Source of the DNA: Yuukianura sp. NJ FZ-2021
Lineage: Eukaryota
Direction of reading: 5' to 3'
DNA length: 64,000 nt
NCBI GenBank assembly: GCA_046563655.1
Contig: CM102288.1
Coordinates: forward strand, 1,054,001-1,118,000
The notes under the pieces are model-generated. The model saw nothing but the letters and a program-made list of their open reading frames with translations. It made no database searches and was not told the DNA's origin. This document shows, in pieces, positions 42,091 through 62,791 of the stretch (within the stretch, counting starts at the first letter, position 1; every line of letters starts with the position of its first letter). A program made the position numbers and the translations under genes.

Positions 42091-42761
42091 TGTCCTTTTG
42101 GAATATCCTCTTTGATCGGAAGTCTATAAGCCTGAAAAATTAATTAACAAGCTCAATTAACGATTAGATAATTCTCACTCAGGTGTCACGTGCCGGTCAC
42201 GTTGTTTCGCAATTTTCAGAATTGGATGTGTCCTCTCTCATCGCAGCTTTTTCTGGGTAAGAAATACTTACACGTTGTGCGAAATTGTGTTTGATGTTTT
42301 GTTTGTCGTTTTTGTTGGCAAATTAGTTAATCTGATCTTAATTTATGGAGTAGACGCTGAGTAACGGTACTTTAAAAACAGTAGACAAACATTGAACAGA
42401 TGATTGATAATCCCGGGTTAAGTGCGACAGAGCTTGTCGGCTTTAAGGCGCCACAACATACCCTCTCGTTTGGATTCAATGCTTTGCATTTGCAAGAGCC
42501 AAATACCAAACGGCAACAGTAAACAGAAAGCGCGCGCAAGCAAGTTACCCGTCAGCAGTTTTCGGAAAATTAGCTACTTAATTGGAAAGTTGAATTAATT
42601 CGTCGTTACTATTTATCAACCGGTGACCGTAAGATATTGTTTTGGGTAAGTCACGCTTCATGCATAAGTACTAAATGTAGGTACTTTTTGCCATTTCTTA
42701 AAATTTCGATCTGTTGACTTCTCAGGAAAGGCGAACTGACCAATTCGCAGTTAACATTGAG

Positions 42762-44947
42762 ATGCCGAGGGAAGAACTTAGTCGTCGTTGTAAGCGGAGC
42801 AGGCCAATGATGGAGTCTGATAATATTGACACTCGGACGAGGCGAGCTACAGACTGCTCCAGTAGTATTCCTGTTATCGAAATTGGTGACGAGGACGATC
42901 CTATTTGCGAGGACATCAATTCAAACATGACATTCCAGCCACGTCGCCGTTCAAAGACGGAGCCCGTGAAACCGGAAACAAAACCAAAACTTGCTCCAAT
43001 ATTTCTGCCAAGAGTCCGGCAAAAAGAACGAGAGGAAGCGTTTGTGCCACCGAAGCCAAAGGCCCCAAAAATCAGCGAAGCCACAAGACAGTTTCTTTAC
43101 TCAGGAGTACCAGAAGCCATTGCCAAAAACCAGCAAATGATTAAGAAGAAGAAAATCGAAAGCGATTTGATGGATACGCATGAAATATTCCCGGTTTTAA
43201 CCCATGTCAACGCTGACACTTCGCGGCCTCCGAATCCCACTCAATCAAAACATCACTTCGGAATTATTTCTGGACAAGATGAAAACCCGGTAGAACACAA
43301 ACCAAGATTAGCAACTAATCTTGAACGAATCGAACCAGAAAATTCTTACTCTGGAGAGATTTGTTGCGGTATCAACAAGCACCAACGCTCCAAGAAGTTA
43401 CTGGATATCATGAAACGGGCATCAAGTCGAGAGTATGTCGAACCTGTTCCTTGGGTTATACAATACCAGGCGACTCGTCGTGAATATCTTGTCATGAAAC
43501 CAGAAGCACATAATGCCTTCAAAGACTGGTTGAAGCAGTGGACTCGGGACATTCGAGAAGACGGAGGTGCCAGTCGTAAGATCATGAAAAAGAGAAGGAA
43601 GGGCTCAGAAGACGACTTTATTGACGACGATGACGACGAAGATGGTTCACAGAAGCACAAGAGTGTTCTTTTGATTGGACCCACCGGTTCAGCCAAATCA
43701 ACTATGGTGAACGTTTTAGCAAAACGTTGTGGATTCAAGGTCAGTCATTGGTCAAAATTATTTGTCGAAAGATGATCTCATTGAATCTGATCTAACATTT
43801 TTCTGTGTAGGTGCTCGAAGTCAATTTCTCTAGTCGGCGTTCTGGTCAAGAAGTTCTTCGTCGAGTTGAAGAAGCAACACTGTCCCGTCGTATTGCCACA
43901 GCGTCCACCGTGGATAACAAACACTGTTTACTTCTGTTTCGGGACATTGATCAGTTATACTTGGAAGAAGACGAAGGATTTCATTCAGCCGTGGCCCAAC
44001 TTATCACGACCTCTCTTCGTCCAATTGTCATGACCGTGACATCAGATCCACATCGTCCTTATCCCACAATCGACTCCAAAATAGAAAGAAAAGAGCCTCT
44101 TTTGATTCATGTTGGAACTCCACCAGTTGACCTCATCATTTCCAACGTGCTGCTGCCAATTATCAAAAGAGAAATATACTATTTAGACGACTCTTCAGAC
44201 TATGACCTTGACCAACAACCAGAAGATCTCAACTACTTCAAAACAATACTGCAATCAATTGTTCGTCACTGCAAGTGTGATATCAAACGCAGTATTAATC
44301 AGGCACAACTTCTTTGGTCCACTTCACAATTCACTTTGGATGCCGTCCATACCACATTGTGTCCAACATTTGATCCAGATTTTACAACTGGATTAGATTC
44401 TGCAATATCAGAGTTTTCATCAAAATTAACAACACAACAAGAAATGGATGAAATTGCAAACAAGTTTAAGTTTGTAACAGATCTGGATAGACTCAGTTCA
44501 TCTTCAGTTTCTGATCCAGAATACGATGGTTTACCACATTCGCTCAACAGTTACTTCAATTCCAACTTTTGCTCAGTTTTCAGTACACATCCAAACGACT
44601 CATCAATTCAGACTCGTCAATTACTGTTGTTTCGAAATCTTACTCTACAAACGGATTCAGAAACTGCCCAGCAGGAAAAAGACTATAAGCTGTACGACGA
44701 CATCGTGACTAACCACATAGACCAAGATGGCAGTCGAGATTACTATGATGAAGTGGCATACTTTAGAACAATGTTGAAAAACACGGTCATCAATTCCATT
44801 GGACACAAGAGAAGACACGGAAGGCTCAAATGTCATTTTTCAAACTTGGGACGAGATGTCATCGACTCTTTTTGTGCCAATTTTGATTTTCCCCGGAGAG
44901 TCCAAGATGCTCATCAAACATCTGAAATTGTACTGGACGATTTATGA
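42762..44947 (+). CDS. ATAD5: ATAD5/Elg1-like RFC1 paralog (PCNA unloader), compact; intron 43740-43810
   Basis: PWVIQYQA...LKQW, P-loop GPTGSAKST, GFKVLEVNFSSRRSG, LLLFRDID...DEGFHSAV...TTSLRPIVMT, CDIKRSINQAQ. Confidence 0.75.
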
Positions 44948-45480
44948 AAACTTTTTAAAATTGTAAAGGTTCCTGTACTAACTGTGTAAAAGGTAAATTG
45001 AAACCAGCAGGATTTAAATTTTGGGGTTTTGGGTTTTAAGTTTAACGCCACTTTAAGATTGAGTGCAATTTGCACTGGGCAAACGCAGTTACTGTAAATC
45101 CAGGTTTTTGGCAACTAAAAAATCTACAGAAATAAATTTGTTGGGGCTAAACTTTAAAATTTTCCAATTTTTTAAAAATTGATATTGATTTTGAAAATGA
45201 ATTTGATTTGAAAAATGGAAATTGGAAATCGTTTAGGAAGTGTCATCAATCATTGCTGCTCGGCCAGAAACGTGTCAAGGTAAGACGCTTCCTGAATTGG
45301 AAATTTTTATATTCTTCGGAATTAGAAAACGCTAAGCTTGTCATTTTTTAAAAGTGTGGCCATATTGAATTTTTGTTTTTTCTTTCAGAAAGACACCGAC
45401 TTGACAAGTCCAAGTTTATTCAATAGAAGTAGAGCGTGACATCCGAAAGGAGAAAGGATAAGCCTTCCAGAAGTTCCAGA

Positions 45481-45571
45481 AGTAGATAGCTGGGTAGGAC
45501 AACGGGCTCATTTATTTTTAGAACAGCCACGGGGGTTAGTCGGCCGCAATATTGGGGAGGGAAAAAACTCA
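45481..45571 (+). repeat. Left terminal inverted repeat (91 bp)
   Basis: AGTAGATAGCTGGGTAGGAC...GGGAGGGAAAAAACTCA is the exact reverse complement of 62117-62207. Confidence 0.97.
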
Positions 45572-45691
45572 AAAGTCCTTGTTTGAACTTGAGAATTCCT
45601 AGAATTTTCCAACACCCGAGGCCTAACAAATTCCAAGAACTTTTAAACGAAAGTTCTTGTTTGAACTTGTCAATTCCTTGAATTCTCCAAC
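45572..45691. repeat. Left subterminal imperfect direct repeat (two copies of about 42 bp, 78 bp apart)
   Basis: AAAGTCCTTGTTTGAACTTGAGAATTCCTAGAATTTTCCAAC and AAAGTTCTTGTTTGAACTTGTCAATTCCTTGAATTCTCCAAC. Confidence 0.8.
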
Positions 45692-45838
45692 GCGCGGAGC
45701 AAAAAACAAATACTTTTTAATTTTTTGTCTATTACAAAGTTTAAGAGTTGCTCATTTTCAGCTTCTCTCTTGCCGCGTCAACAACTGAAAAAAACTTTTT
45801 AAAAACAGTAATTGCAAAGTAAATTTGTTATTGTCGAA

Positions 45839-46612
45839 ATGGCATATAAATTCGATTTCGAGCAGCTCCCATACCTGTGCCAATTAGAAATATATTCAAA
45901 TTTGGACAGGTGTAGCGCTTTGCGACTGGCTAAAGTATTTCCAGATTCCTTAGCCATACTCAAGCCAATGCTTGACAAGATGACTGCCAAAGTTGCAGAG
46001 TACACCCCATTTATGATAAGTGTTGGTGAGACACATATCGTCCATCTTGATTTCAACAAGAAACAAATGTTTAGAGTTGTGCTGGCAGCTCTAAAAAGTT
46101 TTCCGATTGGACGCGTCCTTACGGCGAAAAACTTTGTGACAGCGATTGCACCACACAGGACGTCAGTCGAAATCTCGCTATTCAAAAATTGTTCCGTCGA
46201 AGAGTTACTACCCCTCACCGAAAAATTCGACTTTGAGCGCGGGATTTTTCGGGACGACACTGTAATCAACATCACGCCTCATCGCTACAGCTGCAGATAC
46301 GAGACGTACGGCTGCAGATACGAAACGTATCAAGCCCTTGGAAGTATTGAAGACGCAAGACATCGTGGAGAGAGAAATCAGGAACTCCGGCGGCTACTTC
46401 TGGAGTCATCCATTGAATTTGACAAAGAGTTGGAAGAATGTCAGCGAAAATACCAATTAAAAATGCGTGAAGAAAAATTGCAACGTTTGCGCAAAGAAAA
46501 GTTCCAACGATGGATTCGTCGTCGGAAGGAATTGAAACAATCTTCTGCTTTTTTTAAGCTAAACATATATCGCCGTCGCTTAGCTCTTCAGCGTTTGAGC
46601 AAACGTAACTAA
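45839..46612 (+). CDS. Polinton accessory protein (257 aa) with N-terminal F-box-like motif and basic coiled-coil tail
   Basis: FEQLPYLCQLEIYSNLDRCSALRLAKVF fits the F-box LP-x-E/L-x3-I-x3-L pattern. AATAAA overlaps the stop codon. Confidence 0.6.
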   Translation: MAYKFDFEQLPYLCQLEIYSNLDRCSALRLAKVFPDSLAILKPMLDKMTAKVAEYTPFMISVGETHIVHLDFNKKQMFRVVLAALKSFPIGRVLTAKNFVTAIAPHRTSVEISLFKNCSVEELLPLTEKFDFERGIFRDDTVINITPHRYSCRYETYGCRYETYQALGSIEDARHRGERNQELRRLLLESSIEFDKELEECQRKYQLKMREEKLQRLRKEKFQRWIRRRKELKQSSAFFKLNIYRRRLALQRLSKRN

Positions 46613-46893
46613 ATAAAACGACAATAAATTCTTGAAATAATTAAATTATTTATAATGTTGTAATAAATGTTAAAAGTAAAAAATTTAGAAAAGTTTTAAA
46701 TATAAAGTAAATTGTATTCTTTATAATAAATTAAGAAGTTATAAAGTTAAAAAGTTTAATAAAATAGTAAAAATTTAAAAATATAAAGTAAATTGTATTA
46801 TTTAAAAAACAAAATTTATAAGTTATAAAGTTAAAAAAAGTTGAATAAAAAAAAGCAAAACAAAACAAAATAATTTTAAGACTGATTAACGTT

Positions 46894-47963
46894 TTACTTG
46901 TCACCCTTACAAATGCGGGCGTTCCTAGCATACTTGATAATAAGGTTGTATGTCCGCCGCATTCCAGCAAGGTCGATGTTGTTGTGAACATCAGCATTTC
47001 CATGTTCAACAACCATTCGGGCAGCATGACAAGCAATTCTGCCGCAGTTGTTGGCCGGTCCCAATGATGAGTAGAATATGTTGCGATTAAAGTTGGCGTA
47101 GTCCCATCGAATGGAATAAGGCATGTTGAATTTGTGGCGGAGAACTCTGTCCAGTTGAATTCTCACATTGAAGAGCCTTGCTGGTGCAAATGAGTCATAA
47201 AAGTAGCCACACCTAAAAAATAAAATAACAGTATTAAGCACATGCTAACCCACAATAAAGTAACATAATAAATGAAAACTTACCAATTTTTAACATCAAT
47301 AACCACCAGTAAGATATGGCCTGGAATTTTGACGCTAACCAGCAGGATCTCAGTGTCCGATGGCATGGCCAAAAAGGGCACATCAATAATGCCCAACACG
47401 TCCATTGTCGGGCTCATAAACGATGTCGCTCTGAGGTCGTAGTAAGGACAACCCAAAGCCGGCTGGATATCTTCCGAAACGTTCCACTTCACACAACGCC
47501 ATGCTTGCTCCGTCGGGATGTAGTGAATTTTTTTCCCTGAAGCTCTGACATCTTCCATGAGTTTCTACACAAAAACAGAACAAATTTATGATTAGTACTT
47601 AAAATTTAAAAAATATAAAAAAGTATAATTGTAAAATAAAACTAAACTTACCGTCATGAACGCGATAAAAACAGTAGGGAAGGTTCCACTTGCAGGGTTT
47701 TTCCGAAGCTCGTCCACGTGAGATTTCGCCACCTTAACGACGCCGTGATCGTAGTACTTCTCTTTGCACTTGAGCGGGAATTCCCTTGCCCAGTACAAAT
47801 CTGCAGCGGGGATTTCCGTTTTAATCTGTGCAGTGTCCGGAAGTGGTTTGTAGTTGGCTGAATCCGTCCAGTCTGCACGATGTTCCGGAAGGATATTCTT
47901 GAGCATGAAGTACGAATGTACTTCCTGGAGTCCGCGCTGTGTACGAACAATTCCGTTGACCAT
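46894..47963 (-). CDS. Spliced Polinton accessory gene: Ulp1/SENP-like (clan CE, C48-like) cysteine protease
   Basis: Exons ending at 47652, 47564-47284 and 47212-46894 join in frame through GTAAGT/AG introns. The product contains GHILLVVIDVKNWCGYFYDS and NNCGRIAC (His-Asp-Cys order). The start is uncertain: Met at 47963, or an upstream exon via the acceptor at 47998. Confidence 0.65.
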
Positions 47964-48519
47964 ATTGATGAGCTCGTCGCGAGCAGTGGTCGTGTTTCTG
48001 AAATTTTGAAATAAAGTTAACAAATTGGCGTGTTTAAACTGTTTTTAAAATTTAAAATAACTGTTTTTAAAATTTAAATTAACTGTTTTGTTTAAAAAAA
48101 TTTTCAGTTTTTTTCCATTTTGTCACTAATCAGTGCTTAAAGTACTGATTTCAACACACATTTGCCTGGCGAATCCGCTGGTGCAATTTGTTTTCACATA
48201 AACTTAATGTCTTAAAAGTTACAGCCACTTAAAGTCAGGCTTAATTTTAACCCTAATTTGAAGGTTTTTAGCATGTGGCTTATGCTTTTCAAAATTTAAA
48301 GAGTCATAAAGGTTACTCCCCAACACAGAATTTGATGGGGAATCGAGCGCTGGTTTTAGTTTTCATTTAACGCTTCACTGAAAAAAGTTACAACAGAAAA
48401 ACCGATTTTTCAGTGACTTTTCAAAATGGATGTTGGAAACATAAATAAATTATAAGAACAACCGACCTATAAAACGGCTTCTTAACATTTCATTGACACT
48501 TTTTTAACTATTATTAACA

Positions 48520-48782
48520 ATGATTTCATTTTTTAGTGATTTTTCAGTGATTTTTCAGTGCTTTTTCAGAGGAAATTTTTAATAAAATTCGATTTCACAT
48601 TTTGGAGCTTGTTTATTCTGATTATTTGATTATTTATTAACTAACATTAACTATGATCCCATTTTTTAGTGATTTTTCAGTGATTTTGCAGAGGAAATTT
48701 TTAATAAAATTCGATTTCACATTTTGGAGCTTGTTTATTCCGATTATTTGATTATTTATAGCTAAATAACTAACATTAACTA
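48520..48782. repeat. Tandem duplication (units of about 130 bp) upstream of pPolB
   Basis: TTTTTTAGTGATTTTTCAGTG...GAGGAAATTTTTAATAAAATTCGATTTCACATTTTGGAGCTTGTTTATTC...CTAACATTAACTA occurs twice. Confidence 0.85.
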
Positions 48783-48841
48783 AATAACATTAATTTTGAA
48801 ATTCACAAATTCATTTTACATAAATTCACAGCTTTCAAAAC

Positions 48842-51800
48842 ATGGCGAAAAGATCTGCATCTCCCGCTCCGGGTCCATCATCTAAGCGCGGGTGCCATAC
48901 ATGCGAAATCTGCAACGAGAAGTTCCCATGCGCAAATCAGCTGCTCATCCACATCCACATTCAGCATGAGGAGGAGGACGAGACTGTGAGCGAAGCAACA
49001 AAACAACTTCCACAGATGCCCACAGATGGCCCTGGCGTTCTTTCCATGTACCGTGAAATGAAATGCCCACCATGCAATCTGACATTTCCGTGTCGCGATG
49101 AAATGCAAAAACATTTTTACGAAGTTCATCCGGATTTTTTCTCTGATCTGGCGCAAGATGGAGGTCAACTTTCAACAACTTTGGAGCCAATTACCGTAGA
49201 ACCACTTTTCACATCGCTAAACACAGTGACACAATACAGGGCGGTATTTGAAGACTTTAAATGTGAAAATGGTGTCGATGAACGCGATTTTCTAAAGTGT
49301 GTCTATGATTCATCTGCAACATGGATCAAGCAAGACAGAAAAAAATGGAAGAACGTTAAAGTATTCTTCTCGATGGTATGTAATTTCAAAAAGTCTTATA
49401 TTAACGGTACAGTCGAGACAAACCGCGGCTGTTTCACGTCTTTTCGTCACCTTGTTTACACTGATGAAAGTATTCCAAAGGTGTGGAATATTATGGGTCA
49501 TCAGATGTCAAGCCAAATTGAAAATTTTACGAATGAGGGAAGTGGGTGGGACTTGGCCTATATTTCCGAGTTTAAATTCGTCACCGCCAAATACCAATTT
49601 ACTAAAATTGGAACTTTTATTGAAACACCATTTCCGCTTTCCGAACACAACAAAACATTGTTAAACATTGACAATAGTGAAGTGACACCGTCAAACTCTC
49701 ACAATCAGTGCTTCCTTTGGGCTGTTCTCGCTCATGACAGACTTGTCGGAGCAACTCTTGGAAGAAATCGTTCCAGAGTGGACAAAAAGGTCAAAACTTA
49801 CGCCCCCCATGTATCAAAGGTAAACACTCAAGGTTTGCAGTGGCCATTGACACTACAGCAGCTGCCACGTTTCGAGCAACTCAATCCAAACATCTCACTA
49901 ACAGTTCTCGGATATGACATGGATGCTCCAGCCCCCCCACCGCGAAAAAACGAGACTACTCGTCAAAGGTCAAAGGCCGCCCAAAAGGAAGACCTCGACT
50001 TGTTCAAATGTATGCAGGAGAATATTTCAATCCTCTACAACTCGAAAGAATCCAAACAAATTCACGTGGACTTGATGTGTCTGATGCGTGGCAACAACGC
50101 TCACTTTCTTCTAATTCGAAATCTTGAAGCACTAATGAAGCCTCCGAATGTTCACACTACATTGCACATTTGTCGCAATTGCCTTTCGAACTTTAGACTT
50201 CCAAGAACACTAAAAGAACATACTCCCTACTGTGCTGCGCTTGGACTCCAGAAAGTCAAATACCCGGAGGGGGATAAGTGCAACTTGAAATTTGACAAAT
50301 GGGCTCGCACTCAGCCAATTCCATTCCGCTTTTACGCAGACTTTGAAGCGTTCCTCAACAAGTTTGACTCTACATGCGAACACGAAGTCTGCCGCCAACG
50401 GCACAAAGCACAAATGACGGAATCAAAAGAAAAAGAAGTCAAGGAAAACACCCGTCGTGTTAATATCCACAAGCCGTGTGGATGGTCATGGGTCTGCGTT
50501 GACTTTAACGGTAACCGTCGCTATGGAGAGTGCTATCACATGACAGACGATAATGAAGACGTAGCTGCTCGCTTTGTTGAGAGCATTCTCAGATACTCCA
50601 AGATTCTTCAAAAAGAAGTTGACGAATATGAGAAGATTGCTCCGAGAATGCTGGATCAAAACATGACCCGAGAACAGCGTGAAGCTTCAGAACGTGAAAC
50701 AAAATGCTGTTTTTGTGAAAAAGCATTTTGTTTCGGCGAAACAAGAGTGCGACACCATACACACCTTCCACCTTTCAATTACATCGGTATGGCACATCAA
50801 TTCTGCAATCTTGAAGCCCAGATCAAAAAGGAATTTCCAGTATTCCTGCACAACTTATCCTCCTACGACGTGCACTTCCTGGTACAATCAATGGGGAAGC
50901 TCACAGAAGACAAAATCATCAAAAATGTTGAAGTCATTCCAAAAAGCAGTGAGAAATTCTTGTGCATGACCGTTACTCCAGAGTATTCCGGAGAAGCAGA
51001 AGAAGAAGAAGAAGACGACGAAGACATTGTCGGGAATGTTAGAAGACGTGAAAAGTACAAACTACGATTTACCGACAGTCTCGGCTTCACACTCAAATCC
51101 CTAGACGGCCTGGTTAAGGTAATGCGTCAAGACCCAAATGCCACCTTTCCAGTCACCCGACAAGAATTCCAACAGGAAGTCGACAGTGGCGCCAACATCG
51201 ATCTTCTCTTCCAGAAAGGCGCTTATCCATACTCACTTATGAAATCCTGTGAAGACTTTGAAATGACAAGTTTACCTCCAAAAGAAGCGTTCTTCAATGA
51301 CATGACCGAGGCGCCAATTCAAGATACAGTTTACGAGCATGCCCAGAAGGTTTGGGAAAGCTTTAAAATCAAAAACATGGGAGAGTGGCATGACCTTTAC
51401 GTGCGTCTGGACGTTTCACTTCTGGCTGACGTGATGGAGGGTGTTCGAAAACTTATGATGGACAGCTACGGTTTGGAACTGGGCCACTACTATTCTCTTC
51501 CAATGATGGCCATTGATTGTGCTCTAAAAAAGTCTGGAGTTGTTCTGGAGTTAATCAGCGACCCTACGATGCATTGTTTCTTAGAGCATGCGATCAGAGG
51601 TAAGAAATTATAAAGAAATTATATTGAAAATAATTGAAATTGTTGAAAATTAACCACTTCTTTTTAATTTAGGCGGCTTCGTGTGTGTGGGATCTCGACG
51701 TTCTGCAACTGCAAACCATCCTTACATGGGCGACGAGTATAATCCGGAGGAACCCATCTATTATATCATTTACATTGACGCGAATAATTTATACGTTAGT

Positions 51801-53306
51801 AATTTATATGTTCATAATTTATTTCATTTAATGAAAATATGTCAGAAATTAATTTTATTATATTTTTTTTTTTTTTTTTAGGGAAAAGCAATGAGTTTAG
51901 CGCTTCCCGTCGGAGATTTTCGTTGGCTGACTCAGGCTCAAATGGATAAAATTTTGGGAGATATTGACGGTTTCATTGCGGAAACAGACAGATTGAAGGA
52001 TACTGGGTATTTACTAGAGGTTGACCTGGAAATTGACCCAGAACTCCATGATCAGCTTAATGATTATCCTCCAGCTCCTACTGCAAGAACTGTTACACTG
52101 GATGAGCTCTCTGCACATCAGCAGCAACTCATGGAAGACCTCAACTCTGGGCCCGGTTTGTTCAAAGTGAAAAAACTTGTCGCAGATTTGAACAACAAAA
52201 AAAGCTACATCCTTCATCATGCCATTCTCAAGGAATACTTGGCAATGGGAGTTAAAGTCTCCAAAATTCACAAAGGTATCTCCTTCACACAGCACGCTTG
52301 GATGAAGGACTTTATTGACTTCAATACGGAAATGAGAAAAAAGGCCACCAGTGACTTTGCCAAGGACTTTTGGAAGTTGCTGAACAACTCCGCATTCGGA
52401 AAGACAATCGAGCAAGTCCGTAATCGTCAGAATGTCCGCATTGTCACAACGGTTGAGAAGGCGCTTTACTACAATAAGAAACCTACAGTTCAGAACGTGA
52501 TTCCAATAAATGAAACGACTTGTGTCTTTATGATGAAGAAGCTCCAGGTCACACTCAATAAACCAATCTTCACAGGAGTCACGGTACTTGAGCTAGCCAA
52601 GAGCATCATGTATCATCATCACAGGGTTGGCATGCAGGCAAAATATGGAGACAAGTGCCGCTTGATATACACCGATACTGGTAAGTATAAACTACTTTTA
52701 GTTTTTGTCAAAATTTTTTACACTAAATGTAAAAACAATTTTTTCCTTGCAGATTCATTCATTTATCACATTCAAACCGAGGATGTGTACCAGGACATGT
52801 TCGAAAACAAGGAATTGTATGATATGAGCGAGTATCCAGCCGATCATCCACAATTCGGAAAGTTTCACGACCCTGTCAACAAAAAAGTTCTGGGAAAATT
52901 CAAGGATGAGGCTGCTGGTGCCGTTATCACGCATGTGTACTGTCCAAGACCGAAGATGTACACCATTAGAAGTCTCAAAATCCAGACCGCCAAGTGTGAC
53001 CTCTCCGGAAGAACTATTTATCAAAAGAAGTCGGACGGTTCATGGCTGTTAAAGGATGAGTATACCAAGAAGGCAAAGGGAATTACAAAAACAGCGGTTA
53101 ACGGTCAGGTCAAGTATGAAGACTATGAGCGAGTCCTCAAGGAGAATGTGCAGACTATGGTTACCATGCGTGGTTTCAGAAGCGTCGAACACCGAATTTT
53201 CACAGAAGTAACCATAAAGAAGGCTCTCAACGGATTGGACACGAAGAGATATGCTGTAGATAGTGTTAATACTTTAGCTTTTGGTCATAAAGATATTCCA
53301 AAATAA
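48842..53306 (+). CDS. pPolB: Protein-primed family B DNA polymerase (pPolB), 4 exons, 1410 aa
   Basis: Exons 48842-51599, 51673-51794, 51882-52680 and 52753-53306 total 4233 nt in frame. Motifs: two C2H2 fingers, GSGW, CFLWAVLA, exonuclease YADFE / HNLSSYD / YVRLD, IRGG, DANNLYG, KLLNNSAFGK, YTDTDS, LGKFKDE, PKMY, KKAKG. Confidence 0.96.
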
Positions 53307-53426
53307 TACTTTTAATTAAATCTTTACACTATTATATTTTTATATTTTGTGTTATAAGATTATTAATTGTATATTAAACCAGTAAATTTCTGAAATTGAG
53401 TTTAGTCGTCATTAGTTCTTTGAACC

Positions 53427-54305
53427 ATGCAGGTCTCCTCTCGCTGTGGTAAATTATTTTCGCGTTCAGACGTGTCAAAGCGTCACGAGAAGACATGTTT
53501 CAAATGTTTCTCCATCTCTCCCACCACCGCCGCCGCCACATCCTGGGTGGTTCCAGCCATCGGTGGAGCAGGCTCCACCGTTGGAGGGAGTTCCACTGCC
53601 GCCGCCACCCCCGCCGCCGCCCTTACCGCCGCCGCCACTCTACTTCAGCATCCACGGTCGGGAGACGATATTGACTTGCAACTTGTGGCACCGTTTACAA
53701 TGTGTGTGAGCGGAATGACAAACACAGGCAAAAGCACGCTTGTCAAAGAAATTTTGATTCGAAGAAACGAAGTTGTAAAAACTTCAACTGGAATTGCAAA
53801 TGTAACTTATTGTTACACAGAGTGGCAGTCTGGGCTATTTGGAGAACTAAAAGCAAAAATTCCTGGCATTCAGTTTGTTCATGGACTGCCAGAGAAATGG
53901 CATGATGGTACTGACAGACCGTCAATTATGGTTCTGGATGATTTAATGCATGAAGCTGGGAAGAAGGGAGAGGTTGGAGCAGCCTTCACGAGAACTTCTC
54001 ATCACAGAAATGTGTCTCTGATTATTTTGGTTCAGAATTTTTTTCATAAGAATTTGAGAGAAATTACACTCAACTGTCAGTATTTGGTTCTCATGAAGAA
54101 TCCTCGAGACTCTGCGTTTGTTTCATGCCTTGGACGACAAATGAATGGAGGAAAAAAGAACGCTACAATGGATCTGGCTTACAAGGAGAGCATGGCAAAG
54201 CCCTACGGCTATCTTTTAATTGATCTGACTCAATCACAAAAGGACGACTATCGAATTAGGAGTAGCATTTTTCCCGAAAATTGTTATGTTTATGTCAATG
54301 AATAA
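53427..54305 (+). CDS. Genome-packaging ATPase (FtsK/HerA, A32-like)
   Basis: Walker A GMTNTGKS, Walker B IMVLDDLM, SHHRNVSLIILVQNFF, KNPRD, PYGYLLIDL. Low-complexity Ala-rich N-terminal extension. Confidence 0.93.
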   Translation: MQVSSRCGKLFSRSDVSKRHEKTCFKCFSISPTTAAATSWVVPAIGGAGSTVGGSSTAAATPAAALTAAATLLQHPRSGDDIDLQLVAPFTMCVSGMTNTGKSTLVKEILIRRNEVVKTSTGIANVTYCYTEWQSGLFGELKAKIPGIQFVHGLPEKWHDGTDRPSIMVLDDLMHEAGKKGEVGAAFTRTSHHRNVSLIILVQNFFHKNLREITLNCQYLVLMKNPRDSAFVSCLGRQMNGGKKNATMDLAYKESMAKPYGYLLIDLTQSQKDDYRIRSSIFPENCYVYVNE

Positions 54306-54380
54306 ATAAAATTCAAAAACAAAATTTTGTGTATTTCGAGTTGATTTATTCAAACATTTTTTTTTAAAATATAGTGTATT

Positions 54381-54557
54381 TTACAATTCAGTAACTAAAA
54401 TAGTTTTAGTATGTTGTTTGTTGGTTGATCCTCGTCTTGCAGTGGTTGAACAGCACATGCAGCTGATCTTGTTTTCGTCACAGACGGAGATGGCGGGATC
54501 TTCTTTGCCTGCAAACATCTTGGTCAAAAAGTATTCACAAACTTTAAAAAAGCACAT
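54381..54557 (-). CDS. Small Cys-rich ORF (58 aa), below the ORF-track cutoff
   Basis: MCFFKVCEYFLTKMFAGKEDPAISVCDENKISCMCCSTTARRGSTNKQHTKTILVTEL*. Fills the gap between the integrase and ATPase genes. Confidence 0.4.
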   Translation of the reverse strand: MCFFKVCEYFLTKMFAGKEDPAISVCDENKISCMCCSTTARRGSTNKQHTKTILVTEL

Positions 54558-54581
54558 GTTTACTTGTCTCTCTCTGAATCG

Positions 54582-55593
54582 CTACTGATCCAATTTCAAC
54601 AGCTGCTTGTCGTAAAAACTACCCAAAATAGGGGTACCCTCAAGGTCTTCTAACTTGTAAACGTATGGATTAGTTGCTATAACTCTCACAATTCGATAAA
54701 CTTCGTCAATATAGTTTGTCGAGTAGCCCTTTTCAAACGTTTTTTTAATTCTGGCGACAAGGACGAGGTCGTTTACGTTGAGTTTAGGCTTTTTATAGTC
54801 CACTGCAACTTCCGGGTACAAGTTGCGCCGTACTTCATCCTCATTCCTTTCAGTAACTTTGCACGGCGCCATTTTAATACTTCGATGATATGCATGATTG
54901 TACAGATTTTCAAAATCTGTCAATTTATCAACAAACTTTTTGGTTCTGTTATGTGTCAAGTAGCGCTGAATTTTCATGAATAGTGTGCGGATGAAACGTT
55001 CCACAATCACACATTTTAATGGAGAATGTGTCCAAAATAGTTTGATGTCTTCATGCTTCAGATACGTTTTCATGTGTTGATTAAGAAATTCAGAACCTTT
55101 GTCAACTTGCACTCTCTTTGGCTTTCCACCACTGCGCTCTAAATTTTTTTTAAATGCTGAAAGAACTACTGGTCCTGTCTTGTTTGGAGTTGCTTCGATC
55201 CAGCCTTGTTTTGAAAAAGCGTCAATAACCACCAACAAATACCTAGAAAACAAATTCGAGTTTTTTTTTTTTTTTTTTTTAAAAACCCTAACCTAACCTA
55301 ACCCAACCTAACCTAACCTAACCTTACCTTTTTTTGTTATTGGCTCCCGACATGTTTTGAATGTCCTTCAAGTCTGCACAATACTGTTCATGCATGCCTC
55401 CAACATAAACTCTCCGACGTGGAAACCGATATCGAACTGGACGATGGAGTTAATAACTTGGAATTTGCTTCAAAATTTTCTTGACGCGGTGTGGAGACGC
55501 CTTAGTGTTTGAATCTTTTTGAAACCCAAATGCTCCAGAAAAACTTCCAGGTAGTAAAGTGTTTAACCATCGTTGTTTCAGATCGGTGTCCAT
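54582..55593 (-). pseudogene. Retroviral-like (RVE/DDE) integrase, 2 exons, with an in-frame TAA at codon 48
   Basis: Exons 55593-55328 and 55242-54582. PGSFSG...SY*LHRPVRYRFPRR...QYCADL...RYLLVVIDAFSK...QVDKGSEF...VERFIRT...TFEKGY. The stop is at 55452-55450. Confidence 0.88.
55287..55321. repeat. (CCTAA/TTAGG)7 tract inside the integrase intron
   Basis: CCTAA x3, CCCAA, CCTAA x3, abutting the splice donor. A T20 run is adjacent (55261-55280). Confidence 0.9.
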
Positions 55594-55658
55594 GGTGGAA
55601 ATGAAATAAAAGGACGCTGCACAGTTCAATTTGTATCATTCAGTCTCTAGCAATCAAA

Positions 55659-55994
55659 ATGGCTGGAAGCAAAATCAACAAACATCTTAATTTTCTCAAA
55701 AACTTGAATTCTCGCTCTGAAAAGAAACGATCTTTGCATTTAAATAGTGCGAGTCCAGAACAAATTCGAGCTATTTGCGAATGTGCACACAACGTGTACA
55801 ATGGACGTTTAGTGATCCCACCAAAAGCTATAAAACGACTCATTCCTCACAAAGATCACATCAGACGTCTGATTGCACGCAGAGGAAAAGCAGATCATAA
55901 GCGCCGTCTTCTTGTCCAACAGGGTGGATTTCTACCATTGCTACTTGGTGCAGCAATTCCAGTATTAGGAGAACTTTTAGGTAAACTTTTATAA
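55659..55994 (+). CDS. Conserved small basic Polinton virion protein with a QxGG site and C-terminal amphipathic peptide
   Basis: ICECAHNVYNG...HKDHIRRL...LLVQQGG|FLPLLLGAAIPVLGELLGKLL. The pattern is typical of Maverick core proteins and resembles the adenovirus pX C-terminus. Confidence 0.8.
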   Translation: MAGSKINKHLNFLKNLNSRSEKKRSLHLNSASPEQIRAICECAHNVYNGRLVIPPKAIKRLIPHKDHIRRLIARRGKADHKRRLLVQQGGFLPLLLGAAIPVLGELLGKLL

Positions 55995-55996
55995 CC

Positions 55997-56653
55997 ATGC
56001 CCACGAAATACAAAGTCATTAGTGATGAAGACTTTGAGCGCCTAATGACTCAAACTTCTAAACCAACTGAAATCGGCAGACTCGAGAGTGAAAAAAATCA
56101 GTTGCTCAATATTAAAGATTCGGAAGAAATTCAAAACAAGTTACTTCAAGACGTTTTACGACGATTGGCAGACAAGAAGAAACGCGAAAAAACAGAAAGT
56201 ATTGTTAAATCCGTGCCTGAGCCGTCCGTGTCATCAGTGGACATCCCGCCCAGTCCATCGCCAGTTGAGAAATTTGACTTTGGTGGTCGTACAAGGCTTG
56301 GAGTTCATCTTTTGCAGTTTTTTATTGACAATGGAACCACACTAGCCTCAGGAATTGTAAACTTTGACGGTGGATCACTACCAATTTCTACATTTGATTC
56401 AATACTTAAAAAACTGTCAAATGGAAGATGCAAAATTTCAAAGGATGAACTCGAACCAATAAAAAACTTTTTAACCTCAAAAAGATTTCCATTGTCTATC
56501 CTACCCAAAGCACACCTCCATCTCTTTACGGGAGAAGACTCTGACGTGGCTACTCCTGGAAAAAATCGAAAAAGCATGCACAAATCTCGGAAACGAGCTC
56601 GAGTGGATGACAGCTTTCTGGACGAATGGAAGACCCCACCGAATTGGAAATAA
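55997..56653 (+). CDS. Polinton hypothetical protein (218 aa)
   Basis: Intact ORF starting 2 nt after the upstream stop. Basic C-terminus ending in W-x5-WK; AATAAA at the stop. Confidence 0.7.
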   Translation: MPTKYKVISDEDFERLMTQTSKPTEIGRLESEKNQLLNIKDSEEIQNKLLQDVLRRLADKKKREKTESIVKSVPEPSVSSVDIPPSPSPVEKFDFGGRTRLGVHLLQFFIDNGTTLASGIVNFDGGSLPISTFDSILKKLSNGRCKISKDELEPIKNFLTSKRFPLSILPKAHLHLFTGEDSDVATPGKNRKSMHKSRKRARVDDSFLDEWKTPPNWK

Positions 56654-56675
56654 ATTTAAATACAACAACAAAAAT

Positions 56676-57200
56676 TTACAATTTTATACAACATTGATTT
56701 ATTATTTTGTGTTTAAATTTACAATTTGAATTCAATAAAGGATTTTTTAATATTACAAATTTGCGTACTTTTTTATCATTTAATTGTTTATTGGGAGAAA
56801 AGTGACAGTAAGTAGATAGAATACAACAGCCATGCATCATTTTATACAAAAAGTAGATTGCATATTGCCCACAAACATTAGAGTCAAGGGCTTGCAATGG
56901 TCTAGTATTTTCCAAAATTTTACAAGAAAACTTATTTACAAAATTTCTAAAGTCAATAGGGTAAAAATCCAGTCCAAGTCCATAAGAGCAAAAGAAGATG
57001 ATTGGTCCAGTTCTGCCTCCAATGTAGATTGCCACCCAATGTTCTCCAGGATGATCAGAAGGCTTGTTATTTACAACCAAGTAGGCTGGAAAGTGAGCAA
57101 TTGTTAGCTTTCCAAGTAGGTCGCATGGTATTACATTGAAATATGCTCTTGTTCCGCGAGTCATATTTGACAAAAACTTGTAAATTTGTGTGGTGTCCAT
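56676..57200 (-). CDS. Adenain-like (C5) maturation cysteine protease
   Basis: VVNNKPSDHPGEHWVAIY...FFCSYG...LQALDSNVCGQYAIYFLY...NDKKV. Confidence 0.9.
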   Translation of the reverse strand: MDTTQIYKFLSNMTRGTRAYFNVIPCDLLGKLTIAHFPAYLVVNNKPSDHPGEHWVAIYIGGRTGPIIFFCSYGLGLDFYPIDFRNFVNKFSCKILENTRPLQALDSNVCGQYAIYFLYKMMHGCCILSTYCHFSPNKQLNDKKVRKFVILKNPLLNSNCKFKHKIINQCCIKL

Positions 57201-58501
57201 TAGTGTGAATAGTCTTTGAAAAACACGTTCTTTCCTTCGTCAATATACAGAGTAGATTGAAAGTCAGCGTGACAGACAACGTTCCAAGCCTCAGTGGTAG
57301 GTTTTGCAAACTGAACGACGATTTTTATACTTCCGTGTCTTGGGGGACAGTAGCCTTGATTCATGTTTCTGAGGTTAAAAATGAAAAACGCCTTTCCATT
57401 TGTAAACTCGGAAAGGCTAATAGCAGGTCCTTCATTGCTAGCACACAGTCCAAGACCGCTAAACATTCCATAGTATGCTTCAGAAACTCGAACATCGCCA
57501 TCACTGTTGTACTGGTAAACCTGATGATAAAGTTGTTCTCCGTTTGCTGTGACGGAAATTTGTCTCAATTCTGGAGGATTAAAGTCAAATGGATTTGTAG
57601 TCAGAGTTCCGTTCATTTTTTCACTTTGAACTAGGCAAAGTATAATTCTGTCAGGAAGTAGTCCATTAATCAAGTTTTCATTCACATTTGACACAGTGCC
57701 AAGGGGCAAGCTGTACGTTTTCATCTCGATCCGTCTCATTGGGTAGCATGCCGGCTGACCATTAGCCCACATTTTCAAATGACAATTCAAAATATTCGGT
57801 AACAGAGTATGTTTTTTAACTAAAAGTCTGGCTTCAGTAATATTGATTTTGTAGCGATTTGTATTGTCTGCCTGAGAGTGGAGTGCAAATTCTTCGGTGG
57901 AGCGGTTGAAAGTAACTCTAATGTCGATTCCAGGAAGCAAGTAGCGAGTTTGGGCAAAGATGTCAGCAAACGGTCGTCCAATCATGTCCAAGCCCTTGGC
58001 TGCTAATTCTTGTCTCTTTTTGTGGGAAGTGTCAGTGTCACTCAAATTCTCTTCCTCTCTCAAGTAAAGAGCAGTAACTGCTTGTGTATCCTTGTAGTCT
58101 CCTCCATATGCAAGCACAGTCTCAATATAGGCCCGATACGGATAGAGTGACATGGTTGGAGTAATTTGTGTTTCATTTAGAAACACAGAGCACTGCTGAA
58201 ACAAGGAATGTAAAAAGTTGTTGACTGGAGCGATTCGCATGGTGGCTCTCTCGTCCATTTTATCACTATTTGCTTTTGAAATCTTGCAGCCAACATATAG
58301 CAAAGTTTCACTTAAATCAACATAGTGAACGTCATTTCCTTTGATTTGAAAAGAAATTGGACCTCCATTTTCATTTAATGCTGACAATGGATGGTACTCA
58401 AACATTCCACTACTTTGAAGACTAACGTCCATTTCTGGTTCACTAAATATATCGGTTTCACTTCTAACTACTTCTGGGTGAGGAGCGTGTTTGGAACTCA
58501 T
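57200..58501 (-). CDS. Major capsid protein (double jelly-roll; Polinton PY)
   Basis: EYHPLS...PISFQI...YVDLSETLLY, PVNNFLHSLFQQCSVFLN...YPYRAYIETVLAY, DIFAQTRYLLPGIDIRV, LPDRII, NPFDF. 433 aa. Confidence 0.92.
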   Translation of the reverse strand: MSSKHAPHPEVVRSETDIFSEPEMDVSLQSSGMFEYHPLSALNENGGPISFQIKGNDVHYVDLSETLLYVGCKISKANSDKMDERATMRIAPVNNFLHSLFQQCSVFLNETQITPTMSLYPYRAYIETVLAYGGDYKDTQAVTALYLREEENLSDTDTSHKKRQELAAKGLDMIGRPFADIFAQTRYLLPGIDIRVTFNRSTEEFALHSQADNTNRYKINITEARLLVKKHTLLPNILNCHLKMWANGQPACYPMRRIEMKTYSLPLGTVSNVNENLINGLLPDRIILCLVQSEKMNGTLTTNPFDFNPPELRQISVTANGEQLYHQVYQYNSDGDVRVSEAYYGMFSGLGLCASNEGPAISLSEFTNGKAFFIFNLRNMNQGYCPPRHGSIKIVVQFAKPTTEAWNVVCHADFQSTLYIDEGKNVFFKDYSH

Positions 58502-58924
58502 TGTTCTTCAAATATATTTCTTGGCCTTTTTTCTTGAGAGCGTTTTTTGGTTTTCGTTTTTGCTTCCTCTTCCTTGAACGTCCAGATCCTGACTGAGTAG
58601 AAAGAATACCGTCTGCAACGCCTTTAAGTACTCCCTTCCAAGCGGTCGAACCGTGTTCAGAAATAGCTTCCTTGACGGATTTTTTCCACCAATCACGTCA
58701 GAAGCTATACCAGCAACAGCAGTTTTAGCATGAGGCATTAAATATTTTGTCACATATGGCAAAACTTTTCGAAAAATTGAGCCAAAAATTCCACCAATTC
58801 CGTGACCACGCTGACGAAATTGATTGGCTTTGAAGAATACAGCTCCGTCTGATCCAACAGCTCCTCCACGCTGGGGATTATAAATTCTAAAGAAATCGTC
58901 CTCGCTCAAGTTGCATTTGTACAT
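58498..58924 (-). CDS. Conserved Polinton virion protein (QRGxG-GIG-amphipathic helix family), apparently frameshifted
   Basis: YNPQRGG...FRQRGHGIGGIFGSIFRKVLPY...ASDVIGG. The expected continuation (KSVKEA...QSGSGRSRKRK) lies in the -1 frame after the A6 run at 58685-58680. Confidence 0.75.
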
Positions 58925-58989
58925 CTTGACAGTTTGACGTTTGAAAAGTTAATGATTGATAATTTTTGAGAGCGCTGTTTTTATACCCC

Positions 58990-59691
58990 TCAGTATCGCT
59001 TCCGTCGAAAGTGTAGAGTGGCAGAGAAAGTTCCAACCGTGAATAATGGTGGATCGCCAGATTCCGTCATGATGTACATCCAAATATGATCAATATCGTC
59101 AAATACAACGTCCACGTATTGAAGATGTTGAAATGATCGGGTCACGACCTTCTTGTGTTCGCCCGTATTTGAAATTTTTCTCAATAGTGGGGCAAGGTCA
59201 CCGCCGACGCGTTGGTTTTCAATTATACTACAGTAAATGAAAAGTTGTGTGTGTCCACTCGGCTCAAAAACCTCGTACTCAAAGCTCTGTTTTCCCTCAT
59301 CAAATCCGAGAATTCTAGCTGCCTCCTCATTAAGCTTGACAACTGTGTTTGCAGGTTTCTTTTTAAAACTAGCTTTCGAGTTTTTAATTTCAACTTCCAC
59401 AAGATTGTCAGATATACGTTCTGCAAGTTCCTCTGCAGTACGAATCAAGGTAACGTCACCAGAGTTTATTGTGCCCAAATCAAAATAAGAATTATCAACT
59501 TGTCTAAGCCATCCTTCTTTATGTAGCAAATATTCATGATGAACATATGTACACTCCACGAGCGCCACCTCGTATTTAACACCCTCTAATCGAATTGTCT
59601 CTGCAAAATGATTTCTAAAATTTGTAATTGTGTTCTCTGGATAGTGATTTGAAGAAGAATCACTCTGCAGAGTTACGTAAAAGTCTCCCAT
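58990..59691 (-). CDS. Minor capsid protein (penton; Polinton PX)
   Basis: FYVTLQSDSS...YPENTITNFR...YEVALVE, LFIYCSIIENQRVGGDLAPLLR, QYVDV, TLHFRR. An alternative ATG is at 59715. Confidence 0.9.
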   Translation of the reverse strand: MGDFYVTLQSDSSSNHYPENTITNFRNHFAETIRLEGVKYEVALVECTYVHHEYLLHKEGWLRQVDNSYFDLGTINSGDVTLIRTAEELAERISDNLVEVEIKNSKASFKKKPANTVVKLNEEAARILGFDEGKQSFEYEVFEPSGHTQLFIYCSIIENQRVGGDLAPLLRKISNTGEHKKVVTRSFQHLQYVDVVFDDIDHIWMYIMTESGDPPLFTVGTFSATLHFRRKRY

Positions 59692-59824
59692 GGCTGCTAG
59701 TTTTAGACTAAACATTTAAAATGAAGAACGAGCGTTTAAATACCTTTTTGGTGGAAGTCAAAAATTTATTTTTAGAATTCTTAAAACTAACAATTTTTAC
59801 AAAACAGAAATGTTAAAAAATTGT

Positions 59825-60241
59825 TTAAAATTTAGTGTCTTCGGCGATCCAGTATTTTCCCTCGACTTCGTCAGAGTCTTCTTCAGGAATTGTATTCAAG
59901 CGGGGCTTGAGAGATTTACGGTTCCAGACAGCTTTGCTCATCGCTTCAGCTACAATGTCCATTTTCGGCTTCTTTGCTTGTTGACCCTTATCAGCGTAGC
60001 GCTCCTTACATTCCAACAGCAATAGTTCAAAGTTAGGCAGCTCGCTTATTGGATTTCCCGTCGAAAGAAAGAAGAGAATCAGCTTTGAAACCAGAAATGG
60101 AATTTCCTTCATTTCGATTGTAGTGTAGTAGCGATCCTTCTTGATAAAGACTTTGTATTCTCCATCTTCCACCTTCCACCAGCATTTGACACGATCTTCA
60201 AGGGTCTTGCTCACGAATCCTGCAGCGTATGCTTCAACCAT
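59825..60241 (-). CDS. Polinton hypothetical protein (138 aa)
   Basis: Intact ORF with its own TATA-like/TCAGT upstream. Shares a motif with the 60731-61582 ORF. Confidence 0.65.
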   Translation of the reverse strand: MVEAYAAGFVSKTLEDRVKCWWKVEDGEYKVFIKKDRYYTTIEMKEIPFLVSKLILFFLSTGNPISELPNFELLLLECKERYADKGQQAKKPKMDIVAEAMSKAVWNRKSLKPRLNTIPEEDSDEVEGKYWIAEDTKF

Positions 60242-60356
60242 TGTAGTACTTGAGGAGTAGTTTTTGAGGAGAAGTTTCAACTGAAGCTGAAATGAGACTG
60301 ATGGTTTGTTGAGCAGACGAGCAGCCTTTTTATCCCAAATTTTCAGGTAGAAGTTT

Positions 60357-60541
60357 GACCCTTTTTTTCTATTTTTAGCAATTCCAACAACTTAAATTTC
60401 TTGGAAAAAGGATTAAACGAACAACTCGAAACGTTTTTCAACAGAAACGACCCTTTTTTCTATATTTAGCAAATCCAACAACTTAAATTTCTTGGAAAAA
60501 GGATTAAACGAACAACTCGAAACGTTTTTCAACAGAAACGA
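60357..60541. repeat. Tandem duplication, 92-bp period
   Basis: GACCCTTTTTT...CCAACAACTTAAATTTCTTGGAAAAAGGATTAAACGAACAACTCGAAACGTTTTTCAACAGAAAC occurs twice. Confidence 0.9.
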
Positions 60542-60730
60542 GTCTTTTCCTAATTCTAGGAAAAATAAACGTTTTTTTTCGACATTGTCTAAAAATAGAA
60601 AGGACTAAAAGTTCAACGACTCTCAAACGACATTCTCAAAATAAAATAACCCAAACAACAGAAAATTTGAAAATGTACAAGTTTGAATTTATTCAAATAC
60701 AAAAACTGCTACTAAAGTAGATTATACAAT

Positions 60731-61582: not shown

Positions 61583-61796
61583 GCTTATAGTTTGTGACTG
61601 GTTTCTGAACTGATGATTGCTAGTCTCAAAACTCGCTGTTTAAGTACTACTTGGACAACGTTTGAAATGCTATTTTGAAATTTTTTCAAAAACGTTTTTT
61701 CTAAAGAAATGTTATTTTGAGAACTTTTCAAGAAAAAACGTTTTTCTTGAGAAAAGATATTTTTCCAAGAACTCAAGCCTTAACTAAAAATAAATA

Positions 61797-61937
61797 AAAA
61801 AATAATAACATTGACCCCAGTCTTGTATCTAAGTACTTGTAACTTCTTAACCACAAGCGTTGACCCGTGTGGTATTCGAACCAGCGGTCGTAGAGAAGTA
61901 GTTACAAACACTTAGACACTAGGCTAGAGTCAATGTT
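61797..61937 (-). ncRNA. Putative Pol III-transcribed hairpin RNA (VA-RNA-like) of the Polinton
   Basis: A-box-like TAGCCTAGTGT (61926-61916), B-box-like GGTTCGAATACC (61882-61871), 42-bp imperfect stem 61937-61896 / 61848-61807, and T runs immediately downstream. Confidence 0.55.
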
Positions 61938-61964
61938 CGAATTTTATATACAAAAATTTCACTA

Positions 61965-62116
61965 CTTGTTTTTTGTTGTCGACTTTTTTGTTATCGACAT
62001 TTTTTGTCGACATTTTTGTTTTCGATCTTTTTTTGTCAACATTTTTGTTGTCGGCTTTTTTGTTGACGACATTTTTTGTTGACGACATTTTTTGTTGACG
62101 ACATTTTTTGTTGTTG
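61965..62116. repeat. Right subterminal short tandem repeats (about 12-16 bp, TTTTTTGTTGACGACA-like)
   Basis: About ten degenerate T5-6-GT(T)GTCGAC/GACGAC units abut the right TIR. Confidence 0.85.
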
Positions 62117-62207
62117 TGAGTTTTTTCCCTCCCCAATATTGCGGCCGACTAACCCCCGTGGCTGTTCTAAAAATAAATGAGCCCGTTGTCCTACCCAGCT
62201 ATCTACT
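62117..62207 (-). repeat. Right terminal inverted repeat (91 bp)
   Basis: Exact reverse complement of 45481-45571. Confidence 0.97.
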
Positions 62208-62791
62208 CCAGAGCACTTGAATTTAAGTGGCAGAAGAAGTGGACGTGTTAAATTGACTGAAGACATTTTGAATGGAGGAGTCGCCTAACGCGTTTCCTAA
62301 AATTTTGGAAAAGTTGTCTTTTCCGAAAATGTTTATTTCTGGAGAAAGCGTAGGAAGGAAGGCTTACAGTAATCCGGAGGACTTATTTTCCCATTCGCTA
62401 AAATATGATGATGTCAAAGACGGAATATGATTGGCATTGGCACGTACAGTTCCAGAAAAAGAGAGCACGTAAGCTTTTTTTGAAACCATTTTCTTCAATT
62501 TTCTCTACTTTTTCAAAAATTTTCTCTTTCTTTTGAAAAGAATAGGACTTTGATTGTCTTTTATTCTCCCGAGTCATGTCCATGTCCTCTCTGTCACAGA
62601 ATCTAAAGTGAATAATGGAATTGCCTTGTGTGTCTTTAGGAATGACAAAAGGAGAATAGGTTTCCTAGAAATCTAGAGACTAAAGACTTCGTGTTTTCTA
62701 GTTTCTCTCTTTATGTTCCCGCGTCTTTCGGATCGCTGAATCGCTGAATCACTTTTCCAAATTGTTTAAACCTTATCCTTTTACTTATTAG

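Follow-up and report, generated by a model that had tools for sequence, protein, structure and literature searches.

The pPolB gene and its three interruptions

The DNA analysed here is a stretch of 64,000 nucleotides (nt), hereafter the window, which covers positions 1,054,001 to 1,118,000 of the forward strand of contig CM102288.1 in the assembly of the springtail Yuukianura sp. NJ FZ-2021 (GCA_046563655.1); all positions below are counted from its first letter. It contains a gene for a family-B DNA polymerase of the protein-primed type (pPolB), which belongs to a 16.7-kb Polinton/Maverick element integrated in an animal genome, as is evident from the terminal inverted repeats (TIRs), the CCAGA target-site duplication and the rve integrase (see below). 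The coding sequence is distributed over four exon pieces separated by three short segments (Table 1). The four pieces total 4233 nt, that is, 1410 codons and a stop, and contain no internal stop codon. Each of the three segments starts with GT and ends with AG behind a pyrimidine run, and their GC content (11–22%) marks them as AT-rich against the exons (42–45%). The first segment splits a Gly codon of IR-G-G, so that the spliced translation reads ...LEHAIR(G)/GFVCVG; the second lies directly after DANNLY (...YIDANNLY/GKAMS); and the third splits the second Asp codon of YTDT-D-S (...LIYTDT(D)/SFIYH). Introns 1 and 2 carry stops in every frame, whereas intron 3 is in frame and stop-free, its read-through amounting to 24 residues. 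A preliminary description of this DNA had claimed three GT-AG introns here, a 1410-residue frame restored on splicing, and an in-frame, stop-free third intron encoding a 24-residue insert; on re-reading the sequence the coordinates and the lengths (73, 87 and 72 nt) proved exact, the exon sum and the lack of internal stops confirm the frame, and the translation confirms the insert.

The same description had identified the gene as a viral pPolB, and this identity is supported. A word-indexed search with the exonuclease half returned 133 polymerase homologues, several of which carry a precomputed PF03175 assignment. When an AF2 model of exon 3, the intron 3 read-through and exon 4 was used in a fold search, all nine matches with E ≤ 0.001 were to the DNA polymerase of phi29 (best E 1.5e-8). 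Together with its place in the element, we take the gene to be supported as a Polinton pPolB.

Homologues run uninterrupted across the three sites

An exhaustive search with exon 3, the read-through and exon 4 joined as the query (P0003) gave 11,436 cluster representatives at E ≤ 0.001. Most of the 150 best stretches among these representatives stop at query residue 266–267, at the edge of the read-through, and two of the 150, which start beyond it, begin at residue 291. Junctions were then counted by aligning the four exon pieces separately to 267 homologues with any match, a homologue being counted at a junction only if the alignments of the two adjoining pieces reached fully to the junction ends of those pieces. 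Exons 2 and 3 are directly adjacent in 159/159 homologues, and exons 3 and 4 are exactly one residue apart, as the split codon demands, in 204 of 205; exons 1 and 2 lie within one residue of expectation in 101/101 (78 with an offset of 1 and 23 with an offset of 2). The sole exception at site 3, P0135, has a gap of 87 residues there; an in-frame intron was considered and rejected, as the gap is an internal tandem duplication. In an alignment of 50 sequences (A2), none of the 49 homologues has a residue opposite read-through positions 267–290, while both sides are occupied in all 49, and the motif-C aspartates D265 and D291 of P0003, between which the read-through falls, are invariant. The AF2 model agrees with this picture: its mean pLDDT (predicted local distance difference test) is 90.1 and the sole segment below 50 is 267–290. 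Thus, removal of the three segments restores both the frame and colinearity with intron-free homologues.

The segments were also compared with other kinds of insertion. Rfam, searched at E ≤ 1 over 45400–62300, gave three matches, all below the gathering score and none overlapping the introns; an origin from a self-splicing or otherwise known RNA family was rejected on this ground. With an introner or MITE origin in mind, the three introns were compared with the window by blastn-short, which gave no other copy of them, just stretches of low complexity no longer than 19 nt; nor do the introns have terminal repeats. An intron of the host gene TMF1, in the same window, is of about 67 nt and runs GTAAGT...TTTTAG, in the same style; in size, composition and splice signals the polymerase introns resemble those of the host. 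In all tests that a sequence permits, the three segments behave as spliceosomal introns would, and we regard this assignment as supported.

The motifs interrupted by the introns were examined for conservation, scored over 1401 positions, in windows of 8 residues, as the fraction of homologues in which the residue is identical. The motifs RGG, D.N.LY, K...NS..G and Y.DTDS can all be read in the translation. The window at site 2 (DANNLY/G, motif A) stands at the 99.6th percentile and that at site 3 (YTDT/DS, motif C) at the 97.3rd; site 1 reaches only the 65th, though the R-G-G cut there is conserved. The preliminary claim that each intron splits a conserved motif therefore stands for sites 2 and 3 and is weaker for site 1, where it is the short RGG motif that is conserved. 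That two of the three introns fall within the top 4% of conservation is unlikely by chance, in a comparison made post hoc.

Several features of the gene are recorded in their own right. A 15-nt tandem repeat (2.7 copies, Tandem Repeats Finder score 59) at 51783–51822 straddles the boundary of exon 2 and intron 2; the first ~28 nt of intron 2 resemble further copies of the coding end of motif A, and a second GT follows in frame, 15 nt downstream. The N-terminus of the polymerase (48842–49150) has two C2H2-like zinc-finger motifs (zf-met, E 0.006, below cut-off), in the place of which its relatives have C2H2, Endonuclease_7 or Rho_N domains. A 122-nt tandem repeat (1.8 copies, 95%) occupies 48539–48759, just 5′ of the start of the gene.

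Distribution of the introns among relatives and copies

Mapping the intron positions on relatives had been suggested in the preliminary description. We used 110 related loci with 28–56% identity, 80 of them metagenomic (80 kept of at least 598 stretches) and 30 from IMG/VR, the latter all distant, with no more than 42% identity. Among the assessable loci, site 2 is contiguous in 90/90 and site 3 in 103/103; an intron is found at neither site (0/90 and 0/103), and in this set the positions are not widespread. The interval from exon 1 to exon 3 is contiguous in 85 of 88 loci; of the three exceptions, two fall short of the expected length. The third, the metagenomic locus L060 (51% identical), carries a GT..AG intron of 65 nt that is displaced from site 1 by one codon in the downstream direction, as well as a GT..AG intron of 89 nt in a position peculiar to it, inside the region that corresponds to exon 3 (L060 3551–3639). 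L060 and two further loci, L001 and L033 (48–56% identical), have no intron at site 3.

Among the protein homologues, some end or start where an intron would be met. P0005 ends in ...LLYTDT/GKSILFSEF, that is, it runs into an intron at site 3 (protein ends only), while P0286, of the same 90% cluster, reads YTDTDSLIYH without interruption. P0004 ends 22 unrelated residues past DANNL, P0132 starts with MFLG/GYVSVG, and P0142 and seven other representatives have their first residue at the Met after site 2 or slightly ahead of it. These ends hint that the closest relatives may share intron sites; the contigs of P0004, P0005, P0286, P0124 and P0132 are not among the metagenomic stretches obtained.

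Copies of the element were sought in contigs from four DNA runs (three runs of one sample of organism A and one run, from another study, of organism B), compared with positions 48800–60300; the runs gave from 158 to 1497 contig pieces each, all identity classes included. At site 3, a joint from 52686 to 52750 in both organisms has 91 other letters in place of 63 (with sides of 112 and 154 letters), and a second joint found in both, from 51604 to 52134, has 447 letters in place of 529. The first of these suggests that diverged copies in both organisms have a different intron of about 100 nt, not a multiple of 3, at exactly site 3, and that the intron sequence has probably turned over at a fixed position. 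A loose end in organism A reads ...ATCAGAG directly into GCGG, with no intron at exactly site 1. Among the copies, 15 of the 21 best-supported exonic differences listed are synonymous. From these comparisons the polymerase introns appear to be lineage-specific: distant relatives lack them, and close relatives share them in part.

In the run of organism B (X4), a contig joint 'goes back 1956' and links 51303 to 49348; word depth over 49348–51303 is about 1100–1650 against about 7–400 elsewhere in the element, depth not being copy number. This fragment of the polymerase gene may be tandemly repeated or circular in organism B.

An intron in the integrase and the surrounding element

A second core gene of the element, the integrase, was recognised by its rve domain (PF00665; 38–40 bits against a cut-off of 32.6), and it too is in two pieces. 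Twelve homologues could be aligned right up to the junction on both sides, through the final residue of the upstream piece and starting at the initial residue of the downstream one; in 11 of these 12 the pieces abut with a single residue separating them, and in P0341 the spacing deviates by one residue. The predicted intron between the pieces is almost entirely telomere-type TTAGG repeats, in about eight units of which the first has the form GTAAG and would serve as the 5′ splice site, followed by T5 and A20. This makeup suggests that the intron was created by insertion of telomeric-repeat/poly(A) sequence.

The element as a whole spans 16,727 bp and is bounded by 94-nt inverted repeats with termini AG...CT, the arms of which are 99% complementary. 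The target-site duplication is of 5 bp, a sixth base being mismatched. The Pfam scan identified no capsid genes; open reading frames (ORFs) of capsid size are present. In the left arm, two candidate GT-AG introns, from a heuristic scan only, link three ORFs. A subterminal tandem array of a 15–16-nt unit (9.7 copies, 61969–62114) abuts the right TIR. Host genes with a laminin N-terminal domain, for TMF1 and for a Rad17-like protein lie upstream of the element. The nearest protein to the TMF1 piece is collembolan (Orchesella, 53%), well ahead of insects and spiders, and the nearest named homologue of the polymerase is from Folsomia candida.

Table 1. Features of the Polinton element and its surroundings (positions in the window)
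Feature	Position	Strand	Description
pPolB exon 1	48842..51599	+	two N-terminal C2H2-like fingers, then exonuclease half; ends ...HAIR + G
pPolB intron 1	51600..51672	+	73 nt, phase 1, GC 0.16, gag/GTAAGA...TTTAG/gcg
pPolB exon 2	51673..51794	+	GFVCVG...YIDANNLY, motif A
pPolB intron 2	51795..51881	+	87 nt, phase 0, GC 0.11, tac/GTTAGT...T(16)AG/gga
pPolB exon 3	51882..52680	+	motif B KLLNNSAFGK; ends LIYTDT + G
pPolB intron 3	52681..52752	+	72 nt, phase 1, GC 0.22, ctg/GTAAGT...CCTTGCAG/att
pPolB exon 4	52753..53306	+	..DSFIYH... up to TAA stop
Putative packaging ATPase ORF	53424..54305	+	Walker A GMTNTGKST; Pox_A32 17 bits, below cut-off 22.8
Integrase exon 2	54582..55242	-	rve core from profile position 25 onward
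Integrase intron (predicted)	55243..55327	-	85 nt, GTAAGG, TTAGG-type units, T5, A20, ...TTTTCTAG
Integrase exon 1	55328..55593	-	in-frame TAA at 55450-55452
Adenain-type cysteine protease-like ORF	56676..57239	-	HWVA...CGQY, motifs by eye; no Pfam match
Candidate intron, left-arm gene	47213..47283	-	71 nt, GTAAGT..TTTTTTAG; heuristic scan only
Candidate intron, same left-arm gene	47565..47651	-	87 nt, GTAAGT..TGTAG; heuristic scan only
Left target-site duplication	45476..45480		CCAGA, read in sequence
Left TIR	45481..45574	+	starts AGTAGATAG; 94-nt arm
Right TIR	62114..62207	-	99% complementary to left arm
Right target-site duplication	62208..62212		CCAGA, matches left copy
Host genes	27311-28510, 37249-40271, 42702-43775		laminin N-terminal domain (-), TMF1 (two exons, ~67-nt intron), Rad17-like P-loop ORF

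Interpretation and alternative explanations

We propose that the pPolB gene of this Polinton is interrupted by three U2-type GT-AG spliceosomal introns, which are derived gains within this lineage, and we put the probability of this reading as a whole at roughly 85%. The gene would be transcribed in the nucleus as a pre-mRNA, which would encode the 1410-residue polymerase only after excision of every intron, given the stops in introns 1 and 2 and the position of intron 3 between the motif-C aspartates. The introns would have been gained within this Polinton lineage, distant relatives being without them. While the anatomy of the gene, its continuity in homologues, the fold and the distribution among lineages are matters of direct comparison, the dependence of the element on host nuclear splicing follows as a sound inference if the introns are spliced, and constitutively so, as we infer them to be.

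Several observations weigh against this reading. As to the identity of the gene, the DNA_pol_B_2 match of the exon-1 piece (E 2.4e-5) scores 23.9 bits, below its cut-off of 25.8, Pfam gave no family for the remaining polymerase pieces, and sequence searches of the PDB with these pieces gave no relevant match. As to the integrity of this copy, the TAA within integrase exon 1 falls where homologues have a residue, and the integrase would be broken by this in-frame stop, because of which the copy may no longer be autonomous. The change 50484 G>A, present in many contigs, would by itself turn a Trp codon into a stop, and it co-occurs with a change at 50486; many copies of the family may be defective. 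As to the distribution, the sites shared with the closest relatives (P0004, P0005, P0132, P0142 and the P0125 type) are seen from protein ends alone; the contigs were compared at a likeness threshold of 80, at which joints can derive from other sequences; and the loose end without intron 1 is visible for only 4 nt past the junction, so that a shifted intron such as that of L060 is possible there.

Since intron 3 is in frame, stop-free and 72 nt long, its retention could be regulated, yielding in some tissues a catalytically dead full-length polymerase or a repressor and limiting replication to, for example, the germline. The P element is the known case of this kind: activity of the transposon depends on host splicing of the third intron of its catalytic gene, and tissue-specific retention of that intron is documented. 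Such a switch would draw on the position of intron 3 between two aspartates that are invariant in A2 and on the AF2 model, in which the read-through insert is predicted as a loop with the rest of the fold intact. However, a stop-free state arose in 3033 of 20,000 composition-preserving shuffles of intron 3 (15%, a figure that does not yet count the probability of one in three that a length is a multiple of 3), and the intron that diverged copies in both organisms appear to hold at site 3 measures about 100 nt, which is not divisible by 3. In contrast to the P element, then, the in-frame, stop-free property does not appear to be conserved among copies, and a retention product preserved by selection across them was not found. 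L001, L033 and L060 lack an intron here, P0286 continues across the site without a break, retention of introns 1 or 2 would truncate the protein anyway, and no regulatory sequence for retention of intron 3 was identified. The tissue or germline switch modelled on the P element in the preliminary description is thus unsupported, the findings do not establish a regulatory switch, and we consider one highly improbable. Constitutive splicing would be the default, with the switch as a minority reading, because the stop-free state is common by chance and is not kept in diverged copies, and because site 3 is intron-free in relatives.

Fainter still is the prospect that the segments are no introns at all but small AT-rich insertions that inactivate a decaying polymerase gene. 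The stop in the integrase of this copy and the AT-rich slippage visible at the 5′ end of intron 2 would fit such decay, but decay would hardly leave segments that start with GT and end with AG behind a pyrimidine run, that restore frame and homology to the residue when removed, and that interrupt 1410 codons otherwise open; nor does it sit well with the 15 synonymous differences out of 21 listed among copies, or with the different intron that diverged copies seem to hold at site 3. Equally remote, in our view, is a host-domesticated polymerase gene that is no longer mobile and gained its introns in the manner of host genes. The introns and the N-terminal C2H2 fingers do look host-like, and annotations of arthropod genomes list the named homologues as ordinary proteins; the gene, however, is enclosed by TIRs that are 99% identical and by a target-site duplication, its neighbours include an integrase and a putative ATPase, and the hundreds of contig pieces with 80–100% likeness in two organisms are what a multi-copy family would be expected to give. 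Spliceosomal introns in the polymerase of a Polinton are therefore the reading that we retain.

Relation to known systems

The preliminary description had called Polinton genes intron-poor, which agrees with the literature so far as its matching passages go: core genes of vertebrate Mavericks are described there as intronless (PMC8097293), as are those of nematode Mavericks, in which only cargo genes have introns (bioRxiv 10.1101/2022.07.12.499685). The element described here is like these vertebrate and nematode Polintons in its TIRs, its size within 15–20 kb, its short target-site duplication and its protein-primed PolB, rve integrase and putative ATPase, as well as in its protease-like and capsid-size ORFs. 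It differs in having three polymerase introns and one integrase intron, where the passages cited have intronless core genes, and its duplication is of 5 bp, against the 6 bp given for vertebrate Mavericks in the corresponding passage (PMC8097293). In the matching passages of the full-text literature search, no account was found of an animal Polinton whose polymerase gene has spliceosomal introns. The nearest precedent, to judge from the passages matched, is provided by polinton-like proviruses of dinoflagellates, which likewise have spliceosomal-type introns in full-length elements that keep replication and capsid genes (bioRxiv 10.1101/2025.03.18.643946). There, however, the host is a protist and the introns are introners, members of repeated, transposon-derived families, whereas here the host is an animal and the three introns have neither another copy in the window nor terminal repeats.

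The fold of exons 3–4 matches that of phi29 polymerase, and the motifs RGG, D.N.LY, K...NS..G and Y.DTDS are shared with protein-primed PolBs of the phi29 and adenovirus types; the present polymerase differs in its identity of only 13–15%, its long N-terminal extension with C2H2-like fingers and its interrupted gene. Inteins and group I introns, which are large, self-splicing insertions, occupy those catalytic motifs of family-B polymerases that are best conserved. The insertions here differ from them in being of 72–87 nt, with GT-AG ends and no overlap with an Rfam family.

Implications

Four introns supported by homologues thus occur in two core genes of an element whose class, Polinton/Maverick, is treated as having intronless core genes. 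The absence of introns from endogenous viruses is, in the passage concerned, the stated basis of gene calling in PMC10120064, and because prokaryote-style gene callers rely in this way on intronless core genes, pipelines that use them will split or miss such genes; the numerous database proteins whose ends coincide with the junctions described here look like artefacts of gene calling. Elements of this kind would be expressed by way of the nuclear splicing machinery of the host. They belong to a multi-copy, fast-evolving family, in which copies with and without an intron coexist and intron gain can be traced.

A further reading, which we think unlikely, is that the core genes of this springtail Polinton family have been gaining (or losing) spliceosomal introns in recent times. 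It is suggested by the differences in intron presence at sites 1 and 3 among copies and near-identical relatives, by the TTAGG/poly(A) makeup of the integrase intron and by the position of two polymerase introns within catalytic motifs. If it were true, the family would offer a natural setting in which to observe introns arising de novo, and the introns might themselves be under selection, as a splicing-dependent lock or as a shield of an otherwise intronless invader against silencing by the host.

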